Shown here: positions 3,046 to 61,304 of the stretch, piece after piece | Layout: every line of letters starts with the position of its first letter | How positions within the stretch are numbered: the first letter of the stretch is position 1 | NCBI GenBank assembly: GCA_029261055.1 | Contig: JAJDCA010000051.1 | Coordinates: 9,082 to 73,081, forward strand | Origin: Candidatus Omnitrophota bacterium | GTDB taxonomy: Bacteria; Omnitrophota; Gorgyraeia; Zapsychrales; Zapsychraceae | Length of the DNA stretch: 64,000 bases | Direction: 5' to 3' | Notes under the pieces: model-generated | What the model was told of the DNA's origin: nothing | What the model saw: the letters and a program-made list of their open reading frames with translations, nothing else | The model's database searches: none | Program-made: the position numbers and the translations under genes

Positions 3046-3348
3046 ATGGATCCTCAAATACTCGTCTTTCTCTTCTTTATTTTAGCCCTTTCTATTTTTC
3101 TCGGTTTTGAACTTATTTCTAAAGTACCGGCAACGCTTCACACGCCCCTTATGTCCGGGGCTAACGCCATATCCGGCATTACACTTGTAGGAGCCATACT
3201 TTCTGCTGGTGGCAAAGGAAATAATATCAGCATTTTACTCGGAACTCTTGCCGTGGGTTTTGCCACAATTAATGTTATTGGAGGTTATTTGGTAACGGAC
3301 CGGATGTTAGCTATGTTTAAGAAAAAAGAAAGTGGAGATAAAAAGTGA
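3046..3348 (+). CDS. pntAB: NAD(P) transhydrogenase subunit alpha part 2 (membrane dII segment)
   Basis: 100-aa hydrophobic protein with three TM helices between pntAA and pntB. AAGGA ribosome-binding site upstream; its stop overlaps the pntB GTG start (GTGA). Confidence 0.8.
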   Translation: MDPQILVFLFFILALSIFLGFELISKVPATLHTPLMSGANAISGITLVGAILSAGGKGNNISILLGTLAVGFATINVIGGYLVTDRMLAMFKKKESGDKK

Positions 3349-4715
3349 ATTTAGAATTAATCATTAACCTTTCCTACATTGTTTCAGCCGCTTTATTTAT
3401 TTTCGGTTTAAAAATGCTCAGCTCCCCAGCTTCTGCGCGTAAAGGTAACATGCTTTCCGCCTTAGGCATGCTTTTAGCTGTTGTTGCGACACTTCTCACA
3501 CAGGGATTGGCCTTTAAATGGATCATCATCGGTGTGGCTGTGGGTGGTATTTTAGGTATTCTTTCGGCACGATTAATCGCCATGACCGCGATGCCTGAAA
3601 TGGTGGCGCTCTTAAACGGCTCCGGTGGTATTGCGAGTTTACTTGTCGGCTGGGCGGTGTACCATTTTCAACCAGCATCTTCGGTTCTCACAACTTTCAC
3701 TATTTTTCTTTCTGTCCTCATCGGCGGCGTCACATTTACCGGAAGTCTTATTGCCTGGGCTAAATTAAGTGAAAAATTACCTGGTAAGCCGATTATGTAT
3801 CCCGGCCAAAAGATTGTTAATGTTCTCATTTTAGTGGCCATTATTGCCGGCGGCATCATCTATTGCATGAATCCAGCCGCTAATTATTCCATATTTCTTG
3901 GCATTGTCGGATTATCCTTAATTTTAGGCATCCTTGTCGTCATTCCTATTGGGGGCGCAGATATGCCGGTGGTCATCTCTCTGTTAAATAGTTATTCCGG
4001 TTTAGCTGCATGTGCTGCAGGGTTTGTTATTCAAAATAATATCCTCATTGTCGCCGGTTCTCTTGTAGGCGCCAGTGGCATTATCCTAACTCAAATCATG
4101 TGTAAAGCCATGAACCGTTCTTTAGGCAATGTACTTTTCAGTGGATTTGGTTCTACCGTGCAAAAACAATCTGCAGATGTTGAAGGCGAAGTCAAACCGA
4201 TTGTTGTGGCAGATGCCTACTTCATATTAGAAGCTGCACGCTCTGTTACATTTGTCCCAGGTTACGGTATGGCCGTGGCCCAAGCCCAACACGCCGTACG
4301 CGAGTTAGGTGAAATCTTAGAAGCTAACGGCGCTGAAGTTACTTACGCTATTCATCCTGTGGCTGGACGTATGCCCGGACATATGAATGTTCTTCTGGCT
4401 GAAGCAAACGTTCCTTATGACCAATTGATTGAAATGGATGACATTAATCCTATCATTGAAACTGTAGATGTGGCCGTTGTGATCGGCGCCAACGATGTCG
4501 TCAACCCTGCTGCCCGTCATGATGAAGCCAGCCCTATTTACGGCATGCCCATCATCAATGTCGACAAAGCCAAAACCGTCTTTGTCCTCAAACGCTCCAT
4601 GAACACCGGCTTTGCTGGCGTTCAGAATGAACTCTTCTACTACGACAACACCCGCATGCTCTTCGGCGATGCCAAACAATCCATCCAAGGATTGGTCGCT
4701 GAATTCAAAAACTAA
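3345..4715 (+). CDS. pntB: NAD(P) transhydrogenase subunit beta
   Basis: N-terminal multi-TM region followed by a C-terminal NADP(H)-binding dIII domain (GYGMAVAQAQH...PVAGRMPGHMNVLLAEA). GTG start with a GGAGA ribosome-binding site. Confidence 0.85.
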   Translation: MNLELIINLSYIVSAALFIFGLKMLSSPASARKGNMLSALGMLLAVVATLLTQGLAFKWIIIGVAVGGILGILSARLIAMTAMPEMVALLNGSGGIASLLVGWAVYHFQPASSVLTTFTIFLSVLIGGVTFTGSLIAWAKLSEKLPGKPIMYPGQKIVNVLILVAIIAGGIIYCMNPAANYSIFLGIVGLSLILGILVVIPIGGADMPVVISLLNSYSGLAACAAGFVIQNNILIVAGSLVGASGIILTQIMCKAMNRSLGNVLFSGFGSTVQKQSADVEGEVKPIVVADAYFILEAARSVTFVPGYGMAVAQAQHAVRELGEILEANGAEVTYAIHPVAGRMPGHMNVLLAEANVPYDQLIEMDDINPIIETVDVAVVIGANDVVNPAARHDEASPIYGMPIINVDKAKTVFVLKRSMNTGFAGVQNELFYYDNTRMLFGDAKQSIQGLVAEFKN

Positions 4716-4768
4716 CCCATAAATAATACTACTTTCACTAAATAATTTACTCAGCCAGATAATTCTGT

Positions 4769-4818
4769 AAAAAATCCAGGCTCACAGGCTCCGCGGAGCC
4801 TGTGAGCCTGGATTTTTT
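4769..4818. terminator. Bidirectional intrinsic terminator between convergent pntB and the PilZ gene
   Basis: Perfect 16-bp stem CCAGGCTCACAGGCTC / GAGCCTGTGAGCCTGG with a CGCG loop, flanked by an A7 run on one side and a T6 run on the other. Confidence 0.65.
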
Positions 4819-4865
4819 ACAGAAAAACCCCTTGATAAAATTTTCTTATCAAAAGCTCACAAACT

Positions 4866-5357: not shown

Positions 5358-6458
5358 TTAAATTTCTTTCCAAGGAAGATCAAAAGTTTCCGCCACTTCT
5401 TTGATCATTAAATCTCCCTCAAACATATTAAGCGCTCGCCTTAATGGCTCAATATCTTTGATCGATTTCTCATACCCGTTATTAGCTAACAAAAGAATAT
5501 ACGGAAGCGTGGCATTCGTCAAGGCATAAGTACTGGTTCTCGCTACTGCTCCAGGCATATTCGTCACACAATAATGAACCACATCATCAATCACATACGT
5601 CGGTTCTTCATGAGTCGTGGGACGGCTGGTTTCAAGGGATCCCCCCTGATCAATCGCCACATCTACAATAACCGCACCGTGTTTCATTTGAGAAATAAGA
5701 TTACGATCAATCAAACACGGTGCCTTAGCCCCCCGGATAAGCACGCTACTGATGACTAAATCCGCTTTTAAAACAGCCTCACGAATCGTATGCGTATTAC
5801 TCATTAACGTATGAACATTCGGCGGCATAATTTCGTCCAAATAACGCAAACGATTTAAATTCACATCCATTACCGTAATATTAGCTCCAAGCCCGGCGGC
5901 CATTTTACAGGCATTAGACCCCACCACACCAGCGCCCAATATGACGACGTCTGCAGGTGTTACGCCTGGCACACCACCCAAAATAATACCTCGGCCTTTC
6001 ATAGGCTCTTCTAAATATTTTGCCCCCTCCTGGACGGCCATACGCCCAGCCACTTCACTCATTGGGATGAGACACGGCAACTCGCCATTATCCAATTGAA
6101 GCGTTTCGTAAGCAAAGGCAATGACCTTTTTTTCCAACATCGCCTCAGTCAATTCCCGACTGGCGGCAAAATGAAAATACGTAAAAATAATTTGACCCGG
6201 TTTTAAGAAATCATACTCTTGAGGCTGCGGCTCTTTAATCTTAATGATCATCTCAGCTTGCGCATAAATATCCGTAGCCGCATCTAAAAGCTCTGCCCCA
6301 GCGGATTCAAATTCTGTATCTGTGATTCCACTTCCCTGACCTGCGCTTTTTTCAATTAAAACACGATGCCCTGCCTCTTTCAGCATCTCAACACCCACAG
6401 GAAGAAGCCCTACACGGAACTCATTATTTTTAATTTCTTTGGGAATACCAATAATCAT
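5358..6458 (-). CDS. ald: Alanine dehydrogenase
   Basis: MIIGIPKEIKNNEFRVGLLPVGV... is near-collinear with B. subtilis Ald; Rossmann motif GAGVVGSNA. The start was moved to the MIIGIP ATG at 6458; the annotated N-terminal extension has no homology. Confidence 0.85.
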   Translation of the reverse strand: MIIGIPKEIKNNEFRVGLLPVGVEMLKEAGHRVLIEKSAGQGSGITDTEFESAGAELLDAATDIYAQAEMIIKIKEPQPQEYDFLKPGQIIFTYFHFAASRELTEAMLEKKVIAFAYETLQLDNGELPCLIPMSEVAGRMAVQEGAKYLEEPMKGRGIILGGVPGVTPADVVILGAGVVGSNACKMAAGLGANITVMDVNLNRLRYLDEIMPPNVHTLMSNTHTIREAVLKADLVISSVLIRGAKAPCLIDRNLISQMKHGAVIVDVAIDQGGSLETSRPTTHEEPTYVIDDVVHYCVTNMPGAVARTSTYALTNATLPYILLLANNGYEKSIKDIEPLRRALNMFEGDLMIKEVAETFDLPWKEI

Positions 6459-6465
6459 ATTTTTA

Positions 6466-6520
6466 TCGCTCGTCGCACGTAACACGTGACTCGCGTTTTG
6501 CGAGCGACGCGCCACAAGCG
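6466..6520. terminator. Stem-loop between fumC and ald, a putative terminator or processing site
   Basis: TCGCTCGTCGC...GCGAGCGACG inverted repeat with an internal CACGTAACACGTG palindrome, in the 78-nt gap between two co-directional genes. Confidence 0.3.
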
Positions 6521-9382: not shown

Positions 9383-10966
9383 TTATTCCCTTTTTTTAAC
9401 CTTAATCATTAATCCTTGCACACTCACAACTTCAACTTCTTCACCTTTTTTAATATCCTGATCACTGCACGCCGTCCATAACTCACCATGCACATACACC
9501 TTCCCTTTTTGAGAAGGACTAATCATTTTTTGTACTTCTCCAATTTCACCAACTAAACCTTCTTTGCCACCTAATATGCGCGAACGATGCGAACGAATCA
9601 CTGACCGCACCAAAAACAAAGTAAGCCCCGCCGTTGTCAATGAAAAAGCAAAAATAGAAGATTTTGAAACTCGCATAATCGGATCTACCGTGTCAAAAAG
9701 AAGCATAGAACCTAAAATCAGACACACCAATCCCCCTAATGTTAACATACCAAACGTCGGGGTGTACGCCTCGGCAATGAGTAAAATAAGTCCTAATATG
9801 ATTAAAGCTAAACCGGCGTAATTCGTTGGCAAGGTCTGCATACTGTAAAAGGCTAAAATTAAAAATATGGCGCCCAAAATACCAGGCACACCGATACCAG
9901 GATGTGTGACTTCAAATAACAATCCATAAAATCCAAGAATCATCAAAAAGTACGCAATATTGGGGTTGGCCAAAATATTAAAAAATTTCTGGCTGAAATC
10001 CATGGCGATGTGTTCAACATAAGATTTTTTTGTTTCTAAAGTAATATCTTGCCCATTAATATTAATCACTCGCCCATCAAGCTTTTCCAATAAATCATTT
10101 TCATTCTTCGCAATAATTTCGATGACACCCTTCTCTAAAGCCTCATCATTAGTAATGGAATCGCTTTTGACCACACTTTGTACCGCCCACTCAACATTAC
10201 GCCCTCGCTCTTTCGCAATACTCTTAATAAAGGCTACAGTGTCATTTAAAATTTTGCTTTCCATCGGCGACGCATCAGGTTCAATCTCTTCGACCCCCTG
10301 AACATCCCCCTCTTCCTTCTCTGCCTCTTGATTCTCTACTTCTTGCCTCTCCACTTCTTGACTCTCTGCTTCTTGATTCTCAGTCTCTTCCCCCTCAACT
10401 CGCCCTTTTCTCAATTCATCAATCAACTCCTTCAACTCATCCCAGCGTTCAAGCTTTCGCCGCGGTGCTTGCCCAGGCCCCATCTGTACAGGATGTGCGG
10501 CTCCGATATTAGTCGACGGCGCCATGGCCGCGAGATGACTAGCATAAGTAATAAACACTCCAGCTGAACCGGCCCGCGATCCGCCTGGGGCAATGTACAC
10601 CACAATCGGCACTTTCGACGTGAGCATCTTTTTAACAATCAGTCGCGTTGAATTCAAAAGTCCGCCAGGTGTATCTAATTTAATAATTAAACATTGAGCA
10701 TTTTCTTCGACAGCCCGATCGATTGATCCCACAATGTAATCCGCTGTTACCGGATTAATCGTATCGTCGTTGAGTTGGATAATGTGGACTTTATTGGAAG
10801 GTGAAGCTTTTACTGGATTGAGATTAGCTGAGAACATCCATAAAAAAAAACCTAAAACAAAAATAAATATAAAAAACAAAGGGGTAACCCTTGCGGTTGC
10901 CCGGTTAAAACTTTGTTTGAGGACAGACCCAAGGCCAGCCCCCACAGTATTTCTTTTCTGATCCAT
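9383..10966 (-). CDS. NfeD-family membrane-bound ClpP-class serine protease (stomatin operon partner protein)
   Basis: ClpP-like N-domain (DTPGGLLNS...GSRAGSAGVFI), multi-TM middle region and a C-terminal OB-fold. Contains an inserted acidic E/Q-rich low-complexity segment encoded by a CTTCTTG microsatellite. Confidence 0.8.
   Translation of the reverse strand: MDQKRNTVGAGLGSVLKQSFNRATARVTPLFFIFIFVLGFFLWMFSANLNPVKASPSNKVHIIQLNDDTINPVTADYIVGSIDRAVEENAQCLIIKLDTPGGLLNSTRLIVKKMLTSKVPIVVYIAPGGSRAGSAGVFITYASHLAAMAPSTNIGAAHPVQMGPGQAPRRKLERWDELKELIDELRKGRVEGEETENQEAESQEVERQEVENQEAEKEEGDVQGVEEIEPDASPMESKILNDTVAFIKSIAKERGRNVEWAVQSVVKSDSITNDEALEKGVIEIIAKNENDLLEKLDGRVININGQDITLETKKSYVEHIAMDFSQKFFNILANPNIAYFLMILGFYGLLFEVTHPGIGVPGILGAIFLILAFYSMQTLPTNYAGLALIILGLILLIAEAYTPTFGMLTLGGLVCLILGSMLLFDTVDPIMRVSKSSIFAFSLTTAGLTLFLVRSVIRSHRSRILGGKEGLVGEIGEVQKMISPSQKGKVYVHGELWTACSDQDIKKGEEVEVVSVQGLMIKVKKRE
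10300..10400. repeat. CTTCTTGAYTCTC-type microsatellite (coding, within nfeD)
   Basis: Roughly 12-13-bp imperfect tandem units. They encode the E/Q-rich acidic insert ETENQEAESQEVERQEVENQEAEKEE on the coding strand. Confidence 0.6.
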
Positions 10967-17160: not shown

Positions 17161-18858
<1,698 letters not shown>

Positions 18859-48928: not shown

Positions 48929-49789
48929 TTAATTTATCGTAATTGCCCCATCCCTCAACTGCTCTTCACTGAAAATACCATCCTTCAAACCCGAATTATA
49001 TCGCACATTCGTAAAACTCATCATGGTTTCACCACCGACCTTGAGATCCTTGATCAAAGAGCGTGTCACCGTGGCATATCCCTGTATGCGCCGAATTTCC
49101 TGAACTTCAATAAGACGCATTAATAAATTTTCGTCATCATAAAATTCAACCTTAACAGGGATAAGATCGCGTTCACGAATCCATGAAAGATAATATTTAA
49201 AATCAACACGGCCTGCGTCTTTCGGAATGCTCTTAATTAAATAATGTCCTGTTCCATTAAATTCCACCAACTCATGTTCATCCTCATCAACATCACGCCC
49301 CGAGATATCTTCATACGAAAAATGTGCCCCAAGAAAATTTAGACGTTTATCCCGAGGATCAATGCGGTGCACAAGGTCTAAAATCGGTACATACAACCAT
49401 CGTTCATCCTCGGCGTTTATATGTTTCCATACCATATAAGAAACACCGCTGAAAAATCTTGGCTCAGAAAATTGAATAAAAAATTTCTGATCCCCTCGAT
49501 CATTGACATTTTTTCTAAAGATTTTAAATTCAAAATCCTGGTCTATGGAATAAGGACCTAATGTCGTCATCTTGACATCACAAACTGCATCCTGTCCTCC
49601 ATAAAATACAACCACGTTAGACCTACGCATAATATCTTCAGCCTTTATTTCTAAACCATTAAGTTCTGTTATGAAAAAACATAAAAGCATCAATAATATG
49701 ACAAGAATTGCCCCAGGCAATTTTCGTAGTACCAATAAAAAATGATGCCCTTCAACAGAATGCCAATGCATGCTCATAATATTTTTCAT
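48929..49789 (-). CDS. LolA-like / outer-membrane lipoprotein-sorting family protein (putative)
   Basis: N-terminal TM or signal anchor; general beta-rich profile resembling the LolA_like superfamily. Weak call. Confidence 0.4.
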   Translation of the reverse strand: MKNIMSMHWHSVEGHHFLLVLRKLPGAILVILLMLLCFFITELNGLEIKAEDIMRRSNVVVFYGGQDAVCDVKMTTLGPYSIDQDFEFKIFRKNVNDRGDQKFFIQFSEPRFFSGVSYMVWKHINAEDERWLYVPILDLVHRIDPRDKRLNFLGAHFSYEDISGRDVDEDEHELVEFNGTGHYLIKSIPKDAGRVDFKYYLSWIRERDLIPVKVEFYDDENLLMRLIEVQEIRRIQGYATVTRSLIKDLKVGGETMMSFTNVRYNSGLKDGIFSEEQLRDGAITIN

Positions 49790-49859
49790 GTCACACCTCC
49801 TTTCTTATTTAGAGAAGTAAAGTTGTAGAGAATCAAGAGGCAAAAAAAAAGAAAAATCG

Positions 49860-49985
49860 ATTTACTTAAACTTCTTATTTCTCTACCTCTCTGCCTCTTG
49901 CCTCTTACTTCTTTGCATCTTGCTTCTTGCCTCTCTACTTCTTGATTCTCTGCTTCTTACCTCTCACTTCTCTCCTTCTCGCATC
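49860..49985. repeat. Intergenic CTCTTGCYTCT / purine-rich (GAGGCAAGAAG)n microsatellite
   Basis: Tandem imperfect units CTCTACCTCTCTGCCTCTTGCCTCTTACTTCTTTGCATCTTGCTTCTTGCCTCTCTACTTCTTGATTCTCTGCTTCTTACCTCTC. The same unit family occurs at 10300..10400 and 36690..36780. Confidence 0.6.
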
Positions 49986-50460
49986 AATACGACGGCACAA
50001 CAAACGTCAATTCCAAAAACCTTGGTCTAACCACATCGACAAAATCACTAAATCGCATCTTGATAATTTCTCTATGCGTACCGGCATTAAAGGCGATCTC
50101 GTCATGATCCTGAAGACTTTTGGCCACCACGACCTCCATGCTATACAAAGAACCAAACGGCGGCATAGCCCCAATTTCACAATCCGGAAACATCCGCGCA
50201 AAATCATCTTCCGTCGCCAACTCAATCCTATCAATGCCTGTACTCCTTCTTAGTAAACCAAAATCTACTCTGCATGCGGCCGGTAATACAACCATGGTAA
50301 GTTTATCGTCCATCTTCACCATGACCGTCTTTACAAATTCCTTACCAGATATATGAGTCGACTGCGCAATTTCCTGTGCCGTATAAGCCGTCGAGTGGCT
50401 CAACACGACATACTTGACGTAACGCTCATCCAAATAATGTTTTAATCGTTTAATAGGCAT
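49984..50460 (-). CDS. YbaK/ProX-type aminoacyl-tRNA deacylase domain protein
   Basis: 158 aa, the right size for this family, with a conserved central block (...HISGKEFVKTVMVK...MVVLPAACRVDF...). Confidence 0.65.
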   Translation of the reverse strand: MPIKRLKHYLDERYVKYVVLSHSTAYTAQEIAQSTHISGKEFVKTVMVKMDDKLTMVVLPAACRVDFGLLRRSTGIDRIELATEDDFARMFPDCEIGAMPPFGSLYSMEVVVAKSLQDHDEIAFNAGTHREIIKMRFSDFVDVVRPRFLELTFVVPSY

Positions 50461-55001: not shown

Positions 55002-56138
55002 CTAACAAATATCCACAAGGCTTTTATCAACAATATCCGTTCCCGGCTTACCTAATAGATAGCCCTGACCAGCATCGATGCCGAGTTCTATCAATTTTTT
55101 CAACTCTTCCTCTTTTTCAATCCCTTCAGCAATAGTGATGATACCATTCATTTCACTAAAATATTTTATAGCCTTAACAATACTTTGCCGCAATTCACTC
55201 GTATGAATATCACGCACCAAATGCATATCAATTTTGACAAATTCAGGATGAGATTCTGCAATGGTATCTAAACTCGCATAACCGGAACCCACATCATCAA
55301 TAGCAATCTGAAGACCTAATTTTTTATATTCATTAAGATTTTCAAAGAATACAGAATAATTTCTAATGGCTGTTCGTTCTGTAATTTCCAAGACCATACT
55401 TTTAAATGGAATAAGCCCTTTAGCTACATAGGTCTCGTTAAATTGTCCATTTTCGATAATATATGGCGTACAGTTAAGAAATAATTTTCCACCTTTCTGA
55501 GATTCCCTCCATCGTGTAATCGCCTTTTGCCAGCACACCATTTCCAAATCATAATACATCCCAAAATTTAGGGCCACCTTAAATAAAAATTCAGGATTGT
55601 TTAATCGGCCATCTTTTGGCGGCCGACTAAGCCCTTCCACACCTATCATCTCAGATGACTTTAATGAAAAAATAGGTTGAAAAAAAGGAGTAATCTTTTC
55701 TTCCTGAATAATTGCCCTTAACTCAGATAATAGAGCTTCCTTATCTTGGGGTTCATACCTTTCAAACTGCCCTCGCCTCAATACCGTATCAATACGCGCC
55801 AGCAATTCTTCATGCTCAAAAGGTTTGGTAATATAATCATCCGCCCCCACATATAAACCTTCAATCTTATCGGCAGGCTGTATCATGGCTGTCAAAAAAA
55901 TAATGGGTATATTGTATAGCTGCCTGTCCTCTCTGATTTTTCGACAAATTTCAATACCTTCCATATCCGGTAAATTCCGATCAAGCAAAATCAAATCCGG
56001 ATTTTCTCTCACCTTCACAAGGGCATCTGCCCCGGTATGAACCATATCCACTTCATATTGCCCCGCCTCTAACAGCATCGCGGTTAACCGCGCTGATTCC
56101 ACTTCATCTTCGACAATCAAAATACGTTTTTGATGCAT
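55002..56138 (-). CDS. Response regulator with EAL-domain c-di-GMP phosphodiesterase output
   Basis: REC domain (phospho-Asp in ILLDRNLPDMEG), then an EAL domain with EGLSR (an EAL variant), DDVGSGYASL, EGIEKEEE and QGY blocks. Confidence 0.75.
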   Translation of the reverse strand: MHQKRILIVEDEVESARLTAMLLEAGQYEVDMVHTGADALVKVRENPDLILLDRNLPDMEGIEICRKIREDRQLYNIPIIFLTAMIQPADKIEGLYVGADDYITKPFEHEELLARIDTVLRRGQFERYEPQDKEALLSELRAIIQEEKITPFFQPIFSLKSSEMIGVEGLSRPPKDGRLNNPEFLFKVALNFGMYYDLEMVCWQKAITRWRESQKGGKLFLNCTPYIIENGQFNETYVAKGLIPFKSMVLEITERTAIRNYSVFFENLNEYKKLGLQIAIDDVGSGYASLDTIAESHPEFVKIDMHLVRDIHTSELRQSIVKAIKYFSEMNGIITIAEGIEKEEELKKLIELGIDAGQGYLLGKPGTDIVDKSLVDIC

Positions 56139-56153
56139 AACAAACTCCTTGTA

Positions 56154-59030
56154 TTATGTTCTTTCTGAAATTTTTGACCTATCTAATTCAGCTTTGGGAA
56201 GCTCAAAAGAAAAGGTTGTCCCTTTCCCCAATTCACTTTCAACCTGCACGCTGCCCCCATGCAGTTCAATCAGGAATTTCGTAATGTTCAATCCCAACCC
56301 TGTGCCCCTCACACCAGGACCGTGCGTCCGATTTAATTGTTGAAATTTCTGAAAAAGTTTTGATATATCTTCCTTGGCAATACCCGGACCTGTGTCTCGG
56401 ACAGAAAAAACAACACTTTCTTGATTCTCTTGTCCCAATATAAAAATATCTTTATGCTCTGGCGTAAACTTGACAGCATTACTTATAAAATTAGATAAAA
56501 TTTGTGAAAACCGAAGACGATCGACGTGCATCATAATTATTGGACTTGAATACTGCATGTGTAATTGAATATTTTTCGTATGTGCCTTCAAAGCCCATCC
56601 CTTACATAATTCTTCAATAACCTGAACAATATTCACTTTTTCGGTATTCAGCGTAAACTTTCCAGCCTCATGTTTAGCGACATCAAGAATATCATTGATC
56701 AACAATGTAAGCCTATTAATATTATTATTGGCCGTCGTCATAATTTCTTTTTGTTTATCATTCATAGGGCCTGCCACTTCCGTTGAAAGCACTGTCAACG
56801 CTTGCTTAGTAATGGATAGAGGCGTTCGTAATTCATGGGATACCGTTGATGTAATTTCATCCTTCACAGCCAAAGCCCTCTTTAAATCATCCTCCGCTTT
56901 TTTGCGTTGTGTAATATCCCTCAAATAAGTCGTAAACATAATTTCGTCTTCTAATGGAATACGTACCACGACTAATTCTGCAGGAAATTCATACCCTCCT
57001 GCCCGCATCGCCTTAATTTCAATACGCTTCCCAAGGATATCTCCTTTACCGGTAGCCATATACTTTGTTAACTCTTTCTGAAAAAGTTCCCGTGACGTCT
57101 CTGGAAGTATGGTATGCGCCATATCTTGGTCAATAATTTCATCACGGTTGTACCCAAACGTTTTTTCAGCGGCAGGATTAAATTCTACAATCTTTCCCCT
57201 GTGATCCATTGTAATAATACAATCTAAAGAAGCTTCAAACATCGCATGCTTACGGGCTTCGCTTTCGGAAATCGCATGTTCAAATTGCTTTTTTTCGGTA
57301 ATATCATCTTTAACAGCAAGAAAATGAGTGATATTATTCTTGGCATCCCGAATAGGTGAAATCGTAGCAGACTCCCAAAAAAGCTCACCATTTTTCTTTT
57401 TATTATGAAATTCCCCTCGCCAATTATTACCTGCCAGAATGGTATCCCACAAATTCTGATATTGCTCCTGAGACATTTCACCAGATTTCAAAACCCGGGG
57501 ATTTTTACCCACCACTTCTTCCTCACGATATCCTGTTACTTGTGTAAAACGAGGATTGATATATTCAATCTTTCCATCCCGATCTGTAATCTGGACAATA
57601 CTCGAACTCTGTTCAATGGCACGTGAAAATTTACGCAGCTGCTCTTCCATCTTTTTCCGTTCTGTAATATCCTTAGCGCTAAATAGTATTCCTTCCAATT
57701 TCCCTTTTTTATCTTTTAAAATAGTGATAGAAGAAAGAACCGGTATCAAGACCCCATCCTTTGTTTTCAAATCTGTTTCTAATTCACGCATAGACTCCAA
57801 CTGCATTAATTTTTGCAACCGTGGGCCTTTAAAAATCAACATCTCATCTGAAAGAATTTTATAAATCGGTTGTCCCAACAACTCGTTTTCGGTATATCCT
57901 AATAATTCCCATGTTGAAGGATTAACCGTAAGCATTTTTCCATCGGCATCTAAAACAATCAATGCATCAATCATATTCTTTATAATGTTATCAATGTAAT
58001 CTCTGGATTTAATCAATTCATCGCGAAAAATTTTTAAATCTTTTGTCATCTTATTAAAAGAACTTGATAGCTCTCCAATCTCATCTTTAGATTTCACCTC
58101 AACCAATCGCGTAAGATCTCCTTCCGCAATTTTCTGAGTCGCCTCAACTAAAGAATTAATCGGACGCGTAATCCCCCGGCCAAGTAAAACACCAATCATA
58201 ATCGCAAACAAAATCGTAATGATCGCGACAACCAAAATGGCCTTGCGCACTAAATCCTGAGCAGCTCTCGTAGGTAGCGTTGAAATACTGACCATAAGCA
58301 TGGCAACCTTTTCTTTATCGAGGTTTAACAAAGGGATAGATTTCGTCACGACACTCCCCTTTGAGACATCAAGATTTTCCCTAAATGAAATTTTCTGGGG
58401 AAGCGTTGTTACACTTGAAGTATTATGCAAAAAGAGACTAACATCTACCCCGCTTATTTCTTTCATATTCAAAAGAAAGGAGCGGTCGATTGATCTGCAG
58501 AGCACAAGATATCCTAACCGTGTGCCATCTCCCATATCAATAGGCTGCATGACTTCAATCATCAGACGATTTTCCAACACTTCTAATTCAGTTACAGCTT
58601 GATTTGATTGTAGTATTGTTTGAAAAAAAGACGTCCGGGAAAAATCATCGCCTACTTTATATGCGGTATGTTGTTCTGCTTTCACAATCCCTGTACTATC
58701 AAAAATCAAAAGTCCATCTACCTTATAAAGCTCTTCTTTTCTAACTAACAGCGCGTTAATATTTTCAAAATCACCTAAACTCAAATCCACCTGCAAATCC
58801 GAATCGGACGCAAGAATTTTCCCAAAAGAAAAAAGACTCTCTTGAGAATCTTTAATTAACCGTTGAACCAAAGCAATAGAATGATCTGCTTTGGCCACAA
58901 GCTCAGATTCTAATCGTTTACTCATAATTTGAATCGCCAAGGCCGTTACAATCATAATAGGCACAAGGACCATCAAAACAAGAGTAGCAATAAACCTTCC
59001 TTGTAAACTTAATTTAAAGTGTCTAAACAT
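56154..59030 (-). CDS. Membrane sensor histidine kinase with HAMP, at least 3 PAS domains, HisKA and HATPase_c
   Basis: Two TM segments flanking a periplasmic region, then HAMP, repeated PAS blocks, H-box HELRTPL and G-boxes GTGLGL. 15 nt upstream of the REC-EAL gene. Confidence 0.8.
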   Translation of the reverse strand: MFRHFKLSLQGRFIATLVLMVLVPIMIVTALAIQIMSKRLESELVAKADHSIALVQRLIKDSQESLFSFGKILASDSDLQVDLSLGDFENINALLVRKEELYKVDGLLIFDSTGIVKAEQHTAYKVGDDFSRTSFFQTILQSNQAVTELEVLENRLMIEVMQPIDMGDGTRLGYLVLCRSIDRSFLLNMKEISGVDVSLFLHNTSSVTTLPQKISFRENLDVSKGSVVTKSIPLLNLDKEKVAMLMVSISTLPTRAAQDLVRKAILVVAIITILFAIMIGVLLGRGITRPINSLVEATQKIAEGDLTRLVEVKSKDEIGELSSSFNKMTKDLKIFRDELIKSRDYIDNIIKNMIDALIVLDADGKMLTVNPSTWELLGYTENELLGQPIYKILSDEMLIFKGPRLQKLMQLESMRELETDLKTKDGVLIPVLSSITILKDKKGKLEGILFSAKDITERKKMEEQLRKFSRAIEQSSSIVQITDRDGKIEYINPRFTQVTGYREEEVVGKNPRVLKSGEMSQEQYQNLWDTILAGNNWRGEFHNKKKNGELFWESATISPIRDAKNNITHFLAVKDDITEKKQFEHAISESEARKHAMFEASLDCIITMDHRGKIVEFNPAAEKTFGYNRDEIIDQDMAHTILPETSRELFQKELTKYMATGKGDILGKRIEIKAMRAGGYEFPAELVVVRIPLEDEIMFTTYLRDITQRKKAEDDLKRALAVKDEITSTVSHELRTPLSITKQALTVLSTEVAGPMNDKQKEIMTTANNNINRLTLLINDILDVAKHEAGKFTLNTEKVNIVQVIEELCKGWALKAHTKNIQLHMQYSSPIIMMHVDRLRFSQILSNFISNAVKFTPEHKDIFILGQENQESVVFSVRDTGPGIAKEDISKLFQKFQQLNRTHGPGVRGTGLGLNITKFLIELHGGSVQVESELGKGTTFSFELPKAELDRSKISERT

Positions 59031-59040
59031 TTTTTATTTT

Positions 59041-59184
59041 AGAAGTTATCCCAAAATCTCTATTTCTGATAGCGGGTGACGCGGCCAATTCAGCGAGCGG
59101 GAGGATCCACACTGGGCGGAGGGGCCCGCGAGCGATTGGACGCGACAGGACCCGCGACACCATAGAGGTTTTGGGATAACTTCT
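59041..59184. repeat. 144-bp element: GC-rich (about 67% GC) structured core bounded by 21-bp terminal inverted repeats. It fills the whole intergenic space upstream of the HK gene.
   Basis: Left arm AGAAGTTATCCCAAAATCTCT (59041..59061). Right arm AGAGGTTTTGGGATAACTTCT (59164..59184) is its reverse complement with 1 mismatch. The core GCGGGTGACGCGGCC...GACCCGCGACACC has internal complementarity and is sharply more GC-rich than the surrounding sequence. Confidence 0.6.
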
Positions 59185-59761
59185 AGTACTCTTCAAAAAA
59201 TATTGCCCTTAACACTACTTTTATGGCATCACGCGAGGTTTGAAATTCCTCAGAATTGACCCCTACCATATTATTAACTGCCCGAAAAAACATCTTTAAT
59301 TTTTTGGATACCTCAAAATCGATGGCCCGGACATACGGATCTAAGACGAGGTACTCGACATAGGCCTTTTTGATTTTCGGCACCATTTGTTGTCTATTCG
59401 ACACAGCGTCAAGACAAACACTTAAATGACTTTCAATGGAATAAACTATAAATTGCTGAATGATTCTTACAACATAAGTTTTATTGCCTTCAATAATCCC
59501 CTTATTTAAATCTGCATTAATATCTACACCATATATCTGATTAATCTCTGATGTTAGTGGAGACAATAATTGCATAGCATTGGTAATTTTTTCATATTTA
59601 TTTTTTTCAACGGCCATTAACATCCGTTCAAAAACCTTGGACACATCCACCTTCACAGCATCATGAATATCTGCACTACACGTCTTTAGCGGACATACAA
59701 ATCCCATAAACACAAAACATAAAACCGCGGCTTTAATGATAATCTGTCTGTATTTTTTCAA
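59183..59761 (-). CDS. Secreted hypothetical protein (192 aa)
   Basis: Signal peptide MKKYRQIIIKAAVLCFVFMGFVCPLKTCSA; no other motifs. Confidence 0.45.
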   Translation of the reverse strand: MKKYRQIIIKAAVLCFVFMGFVCPLKTCSADIHDAVKVDVSKVFERMLMAVEKNKYEKITNAMQLLSPLTSEINQIYGVDINADLNKGIIEGNKTYVVRIIQQFIVYSIESHLSVCLDAVSNRQQMVPKIKKAYVEYLVLDPYVRAIDFEVSKKLKMFFRAVNNMVGVNSEEFQTSRDAIKVVLRAIFFEEY

Positions 59762-59798
59762 ATGACCAACCTAATGAACTTTTTGGACAATCTCTTAA

Positions 59799-61304
59799 TC
59801 AAAACTCTACCGTTCCACTAAGGGTAAACCCATCATTATCCAGCTCTGTAATATCCTCTTCTTTTTGAATAAAATACTCTGCCTTCAAAAGAAAATGTTC
59901 ATGCGGCCTGGCATTGACGCCAAAACCGTATTGTGAACGACGGAAAGTCCCATCAGAAAGCGTAACGTCTGTAGCTGATGACGCCCTCAACTTAAGGATA
60001 ACCTCTTTAAACAATGGGGCATCTTTTGTTAAAGTGTACAAAACATCGATGGTTCCCCCATTGCGATCCAAAGATTCCAAAGAGGCCCCCCCATCTAAAT
60101 CTTCTTTGCTAAAATACCAATACGCCCTAAGATCAAGTTTTTTATACACATAACTCGTATCTACGCCATAAGCAGTAAGATCTGCATCATACCGACGAGC
60201 ATCCGTCGTGGCAAAACTTGTATCGGTATTCCGACGCAAAGCTCCTTTGGCAAAGCTAAAACCAAAATTCAAATTTTCTATCCAAGGGAAAACACCTAAA
60301 CGTGTTGTAAACATTCTATTGGAATCATGATCAAGGCTATTTGACCGCGATGCACCAACATTGTCACTCATTTCAAAACTCGTTGGGCCATTCCCAACGG
60401 AAAACAAATAATTAATACCAAAGTTCTCTGCGATGTCCCATTCTCCTTCAGCCATCACCCCAACCTCATTGACATGAGCCGGAACCACTTCCGCTGCTAC
60501 TGGGGATAAAAGATTAAAATTATTTAAAGCAGAAAACCATTCTTCATTATGAATACCAAATGGCCACCAATACCGGCCTCCTACAAAGCGTAAACTGGGG
60601 GCCTCATCTTTAACCTCTACGGGTGCCCACATAATTTTACTCTCTGTAATCACAGGGTCACGGGCATTACCAACAAAATGAACCTCAAACGACCCTGATA
60701 AATTTTGTGTCAATTCACTCCCGATAAAAAGAGCTGTGTCATTTTTAAACCCAGATTCATGTTTACCCGAACGGGTACTTGTACCAGAAATAAGAATTTG
60801 GGAAGTTTCTCCCGGAGCACTCCCCTGTTCCTTATCTAAATCGGCATATGTCACAGTTGAATACCCATGCAGAAAAAAGAAACTGGATTGATCGGCATAA
60901 TTACCGCTTGGGGTTTCTCGTTTAAGTTTATCTTTCGTCGTTGCCAGTTGAGCCCCCTTTTCAGGAAGATTAATCTTGGCCTTATGCAAAAAATCCTTAA
61001 GGAAACTTTTTTTTGCCTCAGAGGGCTCCTTTGCCATGACGTCTGTTTTTGATGCGTCTACGAATTCTTTTTTTACCGTCAAGACTTCAAATTTTTGTTG
61101 AAGATCCACAACCGTACTATTAAATTCGGTTTCTCGTGTTTTTGCCTCTTCACGAAGCCCTTGAATCTCCTGCTGTTGTTGCTGCACTAACTGTCGCAAG
61201 GATTGCATCTCAACCTTGAGATCACTTAAATCATCCGCTTTAAGTCCCATTGGGAACAAACACATCCCAATAGCGACAATAAAAAATACTTTCATTTTTC
61301 GCAT
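59799..61304 (-). CDS. Putative outer-membrane beta-barrel protein with N-terminal coiled coil
   Basis: Signal peptide, Q-rich coiled coil, amphipathic beta-strand pattern, and a C-terminal ...GTVEF with terminal Phe (OMP signature). Confidence 0.5.
   Translation of the reverse strand: MRKMKVFFIVAIGMCLFPMGLKADDLSDLKVEMQSLRQLVQQQQQEIQGLREEAKTRETEFNSTVVDLQQKFEVLTVKKEFVDASKTDVMAKEPSEAKKSFLKDFLHKAKINLPEKGAQLATTKDKLKRETPSGNYADQSSFFFLHGYSTVTYADLDKEQGSAPGETSQILISGTSTRSGKHESGFKNDTALFIGSELTQNLSGSFEVHFVGNARDPVITESKIMWAPVEVKDEAPSLRFVGGRYWWPFGIHNEEWFSALNNFNLLSPVAAEVVPAHVNEVGVMAEGEWDIAENFGINYLFSVGNGPTSFEMSDNVGASRSNSLDHDSNRMFTTRLGVFPWIENLNFGFSFAKGALRRNTDTSFATTDARRYDADLTAYGVDTSYVYKKLDLRAYWYFSKEDLDGGASLESLDRNGGTIDVLYTLTKDAPLFKEVILKLRASSATDVTLSDGTFRRSQYGFGVNARPHEHFLLKAEYFIQKEEDITELDNDGFTLSGTVEF

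Follow-up and report, generated by a model that had tools for sequence, protein, structure and literature searches.

The locus raises the question of what fills the gap between a gene for a 192-aa protein and the sensor histidine kinase gene that follows it in a Candidatus Omnitrophota bacterium. The window, i.e., the whole 64,000-nt stretch of contig JAJDCA010000051.1 that was analysed, carries at this point a GC-rich and structured island. Three identities had been offered for it: a MITE-like mobile insertion, a structured leader RNA or riboswitch controlling a c-di-GMP signalling operon, or an element of RNA stability or processing. The island is very probably a 142-bp non-autonomous MITE with IS5-family (IS427-type) ends, inserted at a stop-codon TA between the genes of an operon. 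The parts of the element and its neighbouring genes are:

55002..56138, minus strand: REC-EAL response regulator (c-di-GMP phosphodiesterase type), following the kinase gene
56154..59030, minus strand: sensor histidine kinase, 958 aa, with dCache/CHASE4, HAMP, three PAS, HisKA and HATPase_c domains
59040..59041, no strand: kinase-proximal flanking TA, one copy of the presumed 2-bp target-site duplication
59042..59063, no strand: inverted-repeat arm 1 (GAAGTTATCCCAAAATCTCTAT); its first 16 nt are the transposase-recognition end, as in the autonomous IS
59064..59161, no strand: core, 98 nt, 68% GC, imperfectly palindromic, non-coding
59162..59183, no strand: inverted-repeat arm 2 (reverse complement GAAGTTATCCCAAAACCTCTAT); its terminal base is the G of the upstream TAG stop
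59184..59185, no strand: second flanking TA, presumed duplication copy; gives the TA of the TAG stop on the minus strand
59183..59761, minus strand: upstream gene, 192 aa, no Pfam family, C-terminus intact

From end to end, region 59040-59185 consists of TA, GAAGTTATCCCAAAATCTCTAT, the 98-nt core, ATAGAGGTTTTGGGATAACTTC and TA. The element proper is 142 bp long, or 146 bp with both TA dinucleotides. The 21-mer AGAAGTTATCCCAAAATCTCT at 59041-59061 pairs with its reverse complement at 59164-59184 in 20 of 21 positions, just as the original prediction had it. These are the only two sites of the 21-mer in the window (zero matches are expected in shuffled sequence), and the terminal inverted repeat extends to 24 nt, 59040-59063 and 59162-59185, with 23 of 24 positions paired.

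The GC-rich core of about 100 nt was likewise confirmed. Its 98 nt (59064-59161) have a GC content of 68.4%, against a window mean of 39.6% and a range of 14-49% (mostly 28-41%) in the other intergenic stretches, and it is the strongest GC island of the 64-kb window. The sole other 100-nt stretch with at least 62% GC, at 10432-10544, lies inside a coding region and was rejected as a related feature, being unrelated coding sequence. Just one ORF runs across the element, a 57-codon TTG frame overlapping the neighbouring genes.

The internal complementarity that had been noticed also held up: compared as inverted repeats along its full length, the halves of the element show 71% identity, and the core is an imperfect palindrome. 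The minus (sense) strand was predicted to fold into a single long imperfect hairpin of -73.9 kcal/mol (z = -8.5), and the plus strand into a single long hairpin of -78.5 kcal/mol (z = -8.65); none of the shuffled sequences folds as well as the element. A fold that is equally strong on both strands (z about -8.5) is what a DNA-level palindrome is expected to give, rather than selection on RNA.

The arms were identified by scanning 185,579 species-representative genomes with TAGAAGTTATCCCAAAAYC, which returned 37 loci; by our own estimate an 18.5-nt pattern would match about nine loci by chance in 596 Gb. About 10 of the 37 arm loci (e.g., L004, L007, L008, L012, L014, L016, and L023) look like such chance matches, in keeping with that expectation. 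The 16-19 nt termini of the window element (TA followed by GAAGTTATCCCAAAAYC) are identical in 19 of 19 positions to IS ends found elsewhere.

The most informative of these ends belong to a complete 836-bp IS on a Phycisphaerales contig (L033), which begins with TA and GAAGTTATCCCAAAACC and closes with GTTTTGGGATGACTTC and TA. With the TA counted in, 19 nt at its left end are identical to the end of the window element, and at its right end 15 of 16 positions agree. This IS has inverted repeats of about 16-19 nt, TA at both flanks, and two overlapping ORFs with an A8 slippery run at about position 906, where a frameshift is predicted. DUF4096 (E = 1.3e-29) and DDE_Tnp_1 (E = 1.1e-18) domains were found in it, and the fused protein scored 247 bits against the NCBIfam model NF033580 ‘IS5 family transposase,’ for which the cut-off is 110. 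ISs of the IS427 group in Paracoccus are 832-865 bp long, with inverted repeats of 13-21 bp and two overlapping ORFs carrying a frameshift motif (PMC3281130), and nearly all captured ISs of the group give 2-bp direct repeats (PMC3281130, Table 2). The Phycisphaerales IS matches this description in size, repeats, 2-bp duplication, and ORFs, and is thus an IS of the IS5 family, IS427 type.

A second IS, from a Sedimentisphaerales genome (L050), encodes a transposase 81% identical to the first. Its ends, CAACCTATCCCAAAACC and CAAGTCATCCCAAAACC, have TA flanks and contain the ATCCCAAAACC core, as does the arm in the window. Within the two ends, the sequences of the full ISs are unrelated beyond about 17-20 nt. 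At a further locus (L036), an internally deleted IS had its end joined directly to a fragment of a DDE domain.

The same 19-nt end was also found on short elements (67-294 bp) that are non-coding and whose cores are unrelated; the assemblies concerned carry the labels Brocadiaceae, Pirellulales, Opitutaceae, and Acidobacteria. One Brocadiaceae genome contained at least 10 dispersed copies, 69-99% identical and with differing flanks, which have only the termini in common with the window element. Single ends with no identified partner occurred in assemblies labelled Abditibacteriaceae, Hydrogenedentales, Nitrospinota, and Myxococcota. A repeat with the same end was found at seven contig ends, six in the Nitrospinota-labelled K_1_bin.23 (genome 67% GC) and one in its sister K_2_bin.39; it looks assembly-breaking and may be a full IS. 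At the one flank where the search pattern did not impose a TA, it was present in 11 of 11 complete elements, which thus have TA at both flanks: nine short elements, the Phycisphaerales IS, and the window element. Altogether, one IS427-type end (GAAGTYATCCCAAAAC) is common to autonomous and miniature elements across phyla. The assemblies with such elements are labelled Planctomycetota (Brocadiaceae, Pirellulales, Phycisphaerae), Verrucomicrobiota (Opitutaceae), Acidobacteriota, and, with the window, Omnitrophota.

Some of the scanned loci had features of their own. In Candidatus Brocadiaceae Bin_5 (L011 2386-2676, L017, and L029) a MITE of about 90 nt with the same end is often adjoined by a second, hairpin-forming repeat (AGACCGGGTGGCACGGACAAACTGGTTTGTCCGTGC); together with an outer arm, the two form TA-flanked composites of about 290 bp, which look like nested or chimeric MITEs. 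In an Abditibacteriaceae genome (L025 4819-4848) a single end is identical in 29 of 30 positions to the window arm and its sub-terminal bases (TAGAAGTTATCCCAAAACCTCTAAGGTG). It directly follows an FtsX-like gene, with neither a partner arm nor a transposase within 1.8 kb, and could represent a solo end or else an element that has decayed.

Within the phylum of the host, one IS427-type IS was recovered, at about 1443-2293 of the Omnitrophica contig JAGQKN010000340.1 (L049), opening with TA and GAAGCCATCTCATAAATACCTC and closing with TA. The transposase it encodes has 65% identity to that of the Phycisphaerales IS, and its ends (GAAGCCATCTCATAAA) agree with those of the window element in 12 of 16 positions. 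The IS427 group is therefore present in the host phylum with diverged ends. The GroEL encoded in the window (17161-18822) is 85-88% identical to the GroEL of Omnitrophica genome assemblies.

The MITE-like insertion of the original prediction is thereby given a family, since the termini are those of IS427-type ISs and of many short elements. The marks of a MITE found here are inverted repeats, a length below about 400 bp, the lack of a transposase gene, ends in common with autonomous ISs, a stable stem-loop of the whole element, and filled versus empty sites in homologous regions. With no transposase of its own, the element depends on a transposase supplied in trans. The TA on both sides agrees with the 2-bp duplication of the IS427 group (PMC3281130), yet the TA also extends the palindrome; as TA is itself palindromic, a duplication and a repeat end are indistinguishable except by an exact empty site. 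The original prediction had seen no obvious target-site duplication beyond a TA dinucleotide; a 2-bp duplication is what the IS427 group is expected to leave (PMC3281130).

Five observations were counted against the MITE reading. Bacterial MITEs are usually A+T-rich (PMC2229807), unlike the G+C-rich core in the window; the core is known from one copy; no transposase gene lies in the window (tblastn of the 64 kb with the Phycisphaerales transposase); the ends of the Omnitrophica IS have diverged; and the TA may belong to the repeat instead of being a duplication. The element is single-copy within the 64-kb window, and no similar core was present among the 37 arm-matched loci. A search of JGI metagenomes for a second core copy with the pattern CCCAAAAYCTCTATN{6,8}GCGGGT gave four chance matches in which the rest of the arm was missing, while blastn of the core against plasmids and phages gave noise only. 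The arm, scanned alone, had zero matches in viral contigs, and a literature search found no mention of its sequence.

The genes at this point all run on the minus strand, beginning with a 501-aa gene and continuing with the 192-aa gene, the element, the kinase gene, and the REC-EAL regulator gene. The stop codon of the 192-aa gene, TAG at 59185-59183, is made up of the flanking TA and the terminal G of the element. At the other side, 9 nt (AAATAAAAA) lie between the flanking TA and the kinase ATG at 59030-59028. The statement that the element exactly fills the gap thus proved nearly right: it reaches into the upstream gene, supplying the G of the stop, and with its flanking TA stops 9 nt short of the kinase start. 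The kinase ATG is not preceded by a Shine-Dalgarno motif; about half of the genes in the window have a clear one.

The 192-aa protein has a 174-aa form at NCBI. No relatives of it were found by word-based search, and exhaustive HMMER searching recovered 83 remote homologues of similar length that aligned to the last residues. Together they form a family of about 170-210 aa; the 192-aa protein has an N-terminal hydrophobic segment. The gene stands directly upstream of a dCache/HAMP/PAS kinase gene in three related contigs (two by homology and one by coordinates only), and the protein may be an accessory partner of the adjacent kinase.

Two of these contigs, L047 and L048, retain the order of 501-aa gene, 192-aa gene, and kinase gene. 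Amino acid identity to the window is 73-81% for the 501-aa gene, 39-41% for the 192-aa gene, and 44-56% for the kinase (N-terminal sensor part). Between the 192-aa gene and the kinase gene, L047 has a junction of 65 nt and L048 one of -4 nt, where stop and start overlap as ATGA; in the third related contig it is 11 nt, from gene coordinates only. Neither the element nor the ATCYCAAAA motif is present in the L047 and L048 junctions. The C-termini of the upstream protein align, ending in AIFFEEY* in the window, QQLFF* in L047, and RMFFPEL* in L048. These empty sites belong to distant orthologues (39-56% amino acid identity) and are architectural, not base-exact; the orthologous junctions have diverged too far for use as an exact empty site.

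An in-silico deletion of 59042-59185, i.e., the element and one TA, left the 192-aa protein unchanged and turned its stop from TAG to TAA. After the deletion, the TAA is followed by AATAAAAA, with the kinase ATG 8 nt downstream. Since the deletion leaves the 192-aa protein intact with a TAA stop, the target was presumably the stop-codon TA at a tight operon junction. The island had been placed in the leader of the kinase operon, a description that has to be given up, as the site is an intercistronic junction in a conserved gene string and not a 5′ leader.

Three readings compete with a MITE. A structured leader or riboswitch, or more widely any cis-regulatory RNA, be it a riboswitch, an attenuator, or a processing signal, evolved for control of the kinase and REC-EAL genes, would account for the very stable predicted sense hairpin and for its place directly upstream of the kinase start codon. 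No Rfam family matched, however: the whole window gave no match at the gathering threshold, and with E-values of up to 10 the element region gave only noise, scoring 7-20 bits where the thresholds are 58-65. Folding of the antisense strand is at least as strong, and the arms are transposon ends, which other phyla have in unrelated surroundings. After the stem comes AAAAUAAAAA on the sense strand and GUACUCUUC on the other, with no U-tract on either. A scan of 58800-59900 found no intrinsic terminator, and the element has no sigma-70-like promoter consensus. The lack of an Rfam match, a promoter, and a terminator leaves the riboswitch or leader reading without support, and absence of the element from the two readable orthologous junctions (the third being only 11 nt) is directly against it. 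As an origin, a cis-regulatory RNA is largely refuted and is very improbable. A role in RNA stability or processing is possible as a side effect of the insertion, were the element to be transcribed with its neighbours.

An in-situ remnant, left where a full IS427-type IS had inserted and later lost its interior, so that the short form was never mobile, would explain why the core is known from one copy only, and the internally deleted IS at L036 shows that such a loss occurs with the same end. Against this, the core is palindromic throughout, with the two halves related as inverted repeats, whereas the inner sequences of full ISs are unrelated beyond the ends; the core, moreover, has no similarity to the transposase gene or the sub-terminal parts of the Phycisphaerales IS. 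A core that is palindromic over its full length argues for a MITE-type origin, and a remnant is accordingly judged unlikely. The remaining reading, a chance palindrome or an assembly artefact, draws on a Logan assembly of SRR15505515 (L001 3577-3650), which breaks off exactly in the middle of the palindrome after 74 nt of the element; another Logan contig of that run ends before reaching it. Yet this independent assembly contains, at this very junction, the arm together with half of the core, arm matches are not expected by chance, no shuffle folds as well, and the arm is identical to IS ends elsewhere over all 19 positions; this reading is refuted and retains next to no probability. The break in that assembly may have come from the assembler stopping at the hairpin or from heterogeneity in the population.

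For the MITE, the mode of movement can be sketched from what is known of its family. The DDE transposase of a full-length relative would bind the 16-19-bp termini (GAAGTTATCCCAAAAC), excise or copy the element, and insert it at a TA, which would be duplicated. The element would accordingly be moved, or have been moved, in trans by a transposase recognising GAAGTYATCCCAAAAC, the presumed source being an IS427-type partner IS with GAAGTTATCCCAAAA ends. The putative target is the TA in the TAA stop of the 192-aa gene, from which the kinase ATG lies 8 nt downstream in a conserved operon. The junction before insertion would have been GAAGAGTACTAAAATAAAAAATGTTT, reading TAC TAA AAT AAA AAA TG. The insertion would have changed the stop from TAA to TAG, left both proteins unchanged, and moved the cistrons 144 nt further apart. 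The locus is in this respect a clean case of a MITE in a stop-codon TA with both proteins unaltered. Landing between co-transcribed genes is an ordinary kind of event for such an element, and not the making of a riboswitch. As to the core, its 68% GC in a genome of 40% GC suggests that the element arose in, or recently came from, a GC-richer genome.

If the genes are carried on one RNA, a hairpin of about -74 kcal/mol would be predicted to begin at the stop of the first gene and to end 9 nt short of the kinase start. It is probable that such a hairpin upsets the close coupling that the 192-aa gene and the kinase gene originally had. It could weaken or re-wire translational coupling or make a site for a double-strand RNase, and it could hinder 30S loading at the kinase. 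Alternatively, a ribosome terminating on the 192-aa gene could melt the base of the stem, by which kinase translation would stay tied to translation of the upstream gene. Co-transcribed MITEs with comparable effects are known: RNase III acts on Correia/NEMIS transcripts, and ERIC elements change mRNA stability (PMC2229807, PMC3184786, PMC2649163). If the hairpin alters kinase expression, the locus would be another example of a MITE tuning an operon, which is useful but not surprising.

A bolder proposal holds that the insertion was co-opted as a coupling or RNase III module and, separately, that the GC-rich core records a recent transfer across lineages; there is some small chance of this. Under co-option, melting of the stem base would expose the kinase start, which lacks a Shine-Dalgarno motif, and the MITE would set the ratio of accessory protein to kinase in the c-di-GMP signalling operon. 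Under transfer, the donor would come from a MITE/IS lineage with 16-nt ends conserved in at least five phyla.

Comparison with known systems places the element in a known class, the non-autonomous elements of IS5/IS427 type, to which it adds a member in an Omnitrophota genome. Its likeness to the IS427-group ISs (IS1248, ISPpa2, and ISPaes1) lies in the terminal 16-19 nt, identical or nearly identical to those of the representatives L033 and L050, and in the TA flanks. It differs from them in its length of 142 bp, in having no transposase gene, and in an unrelated interior that is a GC-rich palindrome. An IS5-family IS of Leptospira weilii and the Omnitrophica IS have the same end architecture as the window element, GAAG..ATC.CA.AA.

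The Correia/NEMIS elements of Neisseria are alike in size (about 107-155 bp), in inverted repeats of about 24 bp, in TA termini, and in long stem-loop transcripts (PMC2229807, PMC2649163). They are often co-transcribed with their neighbours, and RNase III can cut them (PMC2229807, PMC2649163). Their terminal sequences are unrelated to those in the window, however, and Correia elements are multi-copy and may contain promoter and IHF motifs, whereas the window element has one known copy, no promoter consensus, and a cognate autonomous IS that can be identified. The ERIC/IRU elements of enterobacteria are likewise imperfectly palindromic, about 127 bp long, and located in intergenic regions that are transcribed (PMC2229807, PMC3184786). 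ERIC elements are co-transcribed with flanking genes and can alter the stability of the upstream or downstream mRNA segment (PMC2229807, PMC3184786). Their terminal repeats are short (7 bp) with unrelated sequences, and for ERIC the effects on mRNA are measured ones. Nezha, a cyanobacterial MITE paired with ISNpu3, offers a parallel in its IS-common repeats, flanking duplication, highly stable predicted structure, and filled and empty sites (PMC3184786). It differs in IS family and host phylum, and it has exact empty sites and many copies, whereas for the window element there are diverged junctions only. For annotation, the 192-aa gene and the kinase gene should be treated as one conserved operon, and the GC-rich island should be labelled as a mobile-element insertion, not as a regulatory RNA.

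Two other intergenic features were noted in the window. At 4763-4824, between the convergent genes 3345-4715 (plus strand) and 5358-6515 (minus strand), a 62-bp sequence is perfectly palindromic, with two arms of 31 nt and no loop between them; its GC-rich stem is accompanied by an A6 and a T6 run. This resembles an intrinsic terminator acting in both directions, for which a zero-length loop with perfect symmetry is unusual. At 49840-49990, upstream of the gene at 48929-49789 (minus strand), the intergenic sequence is made up of CT-rich low-complexity short repeats (cttgcctct, ttcttgc...).
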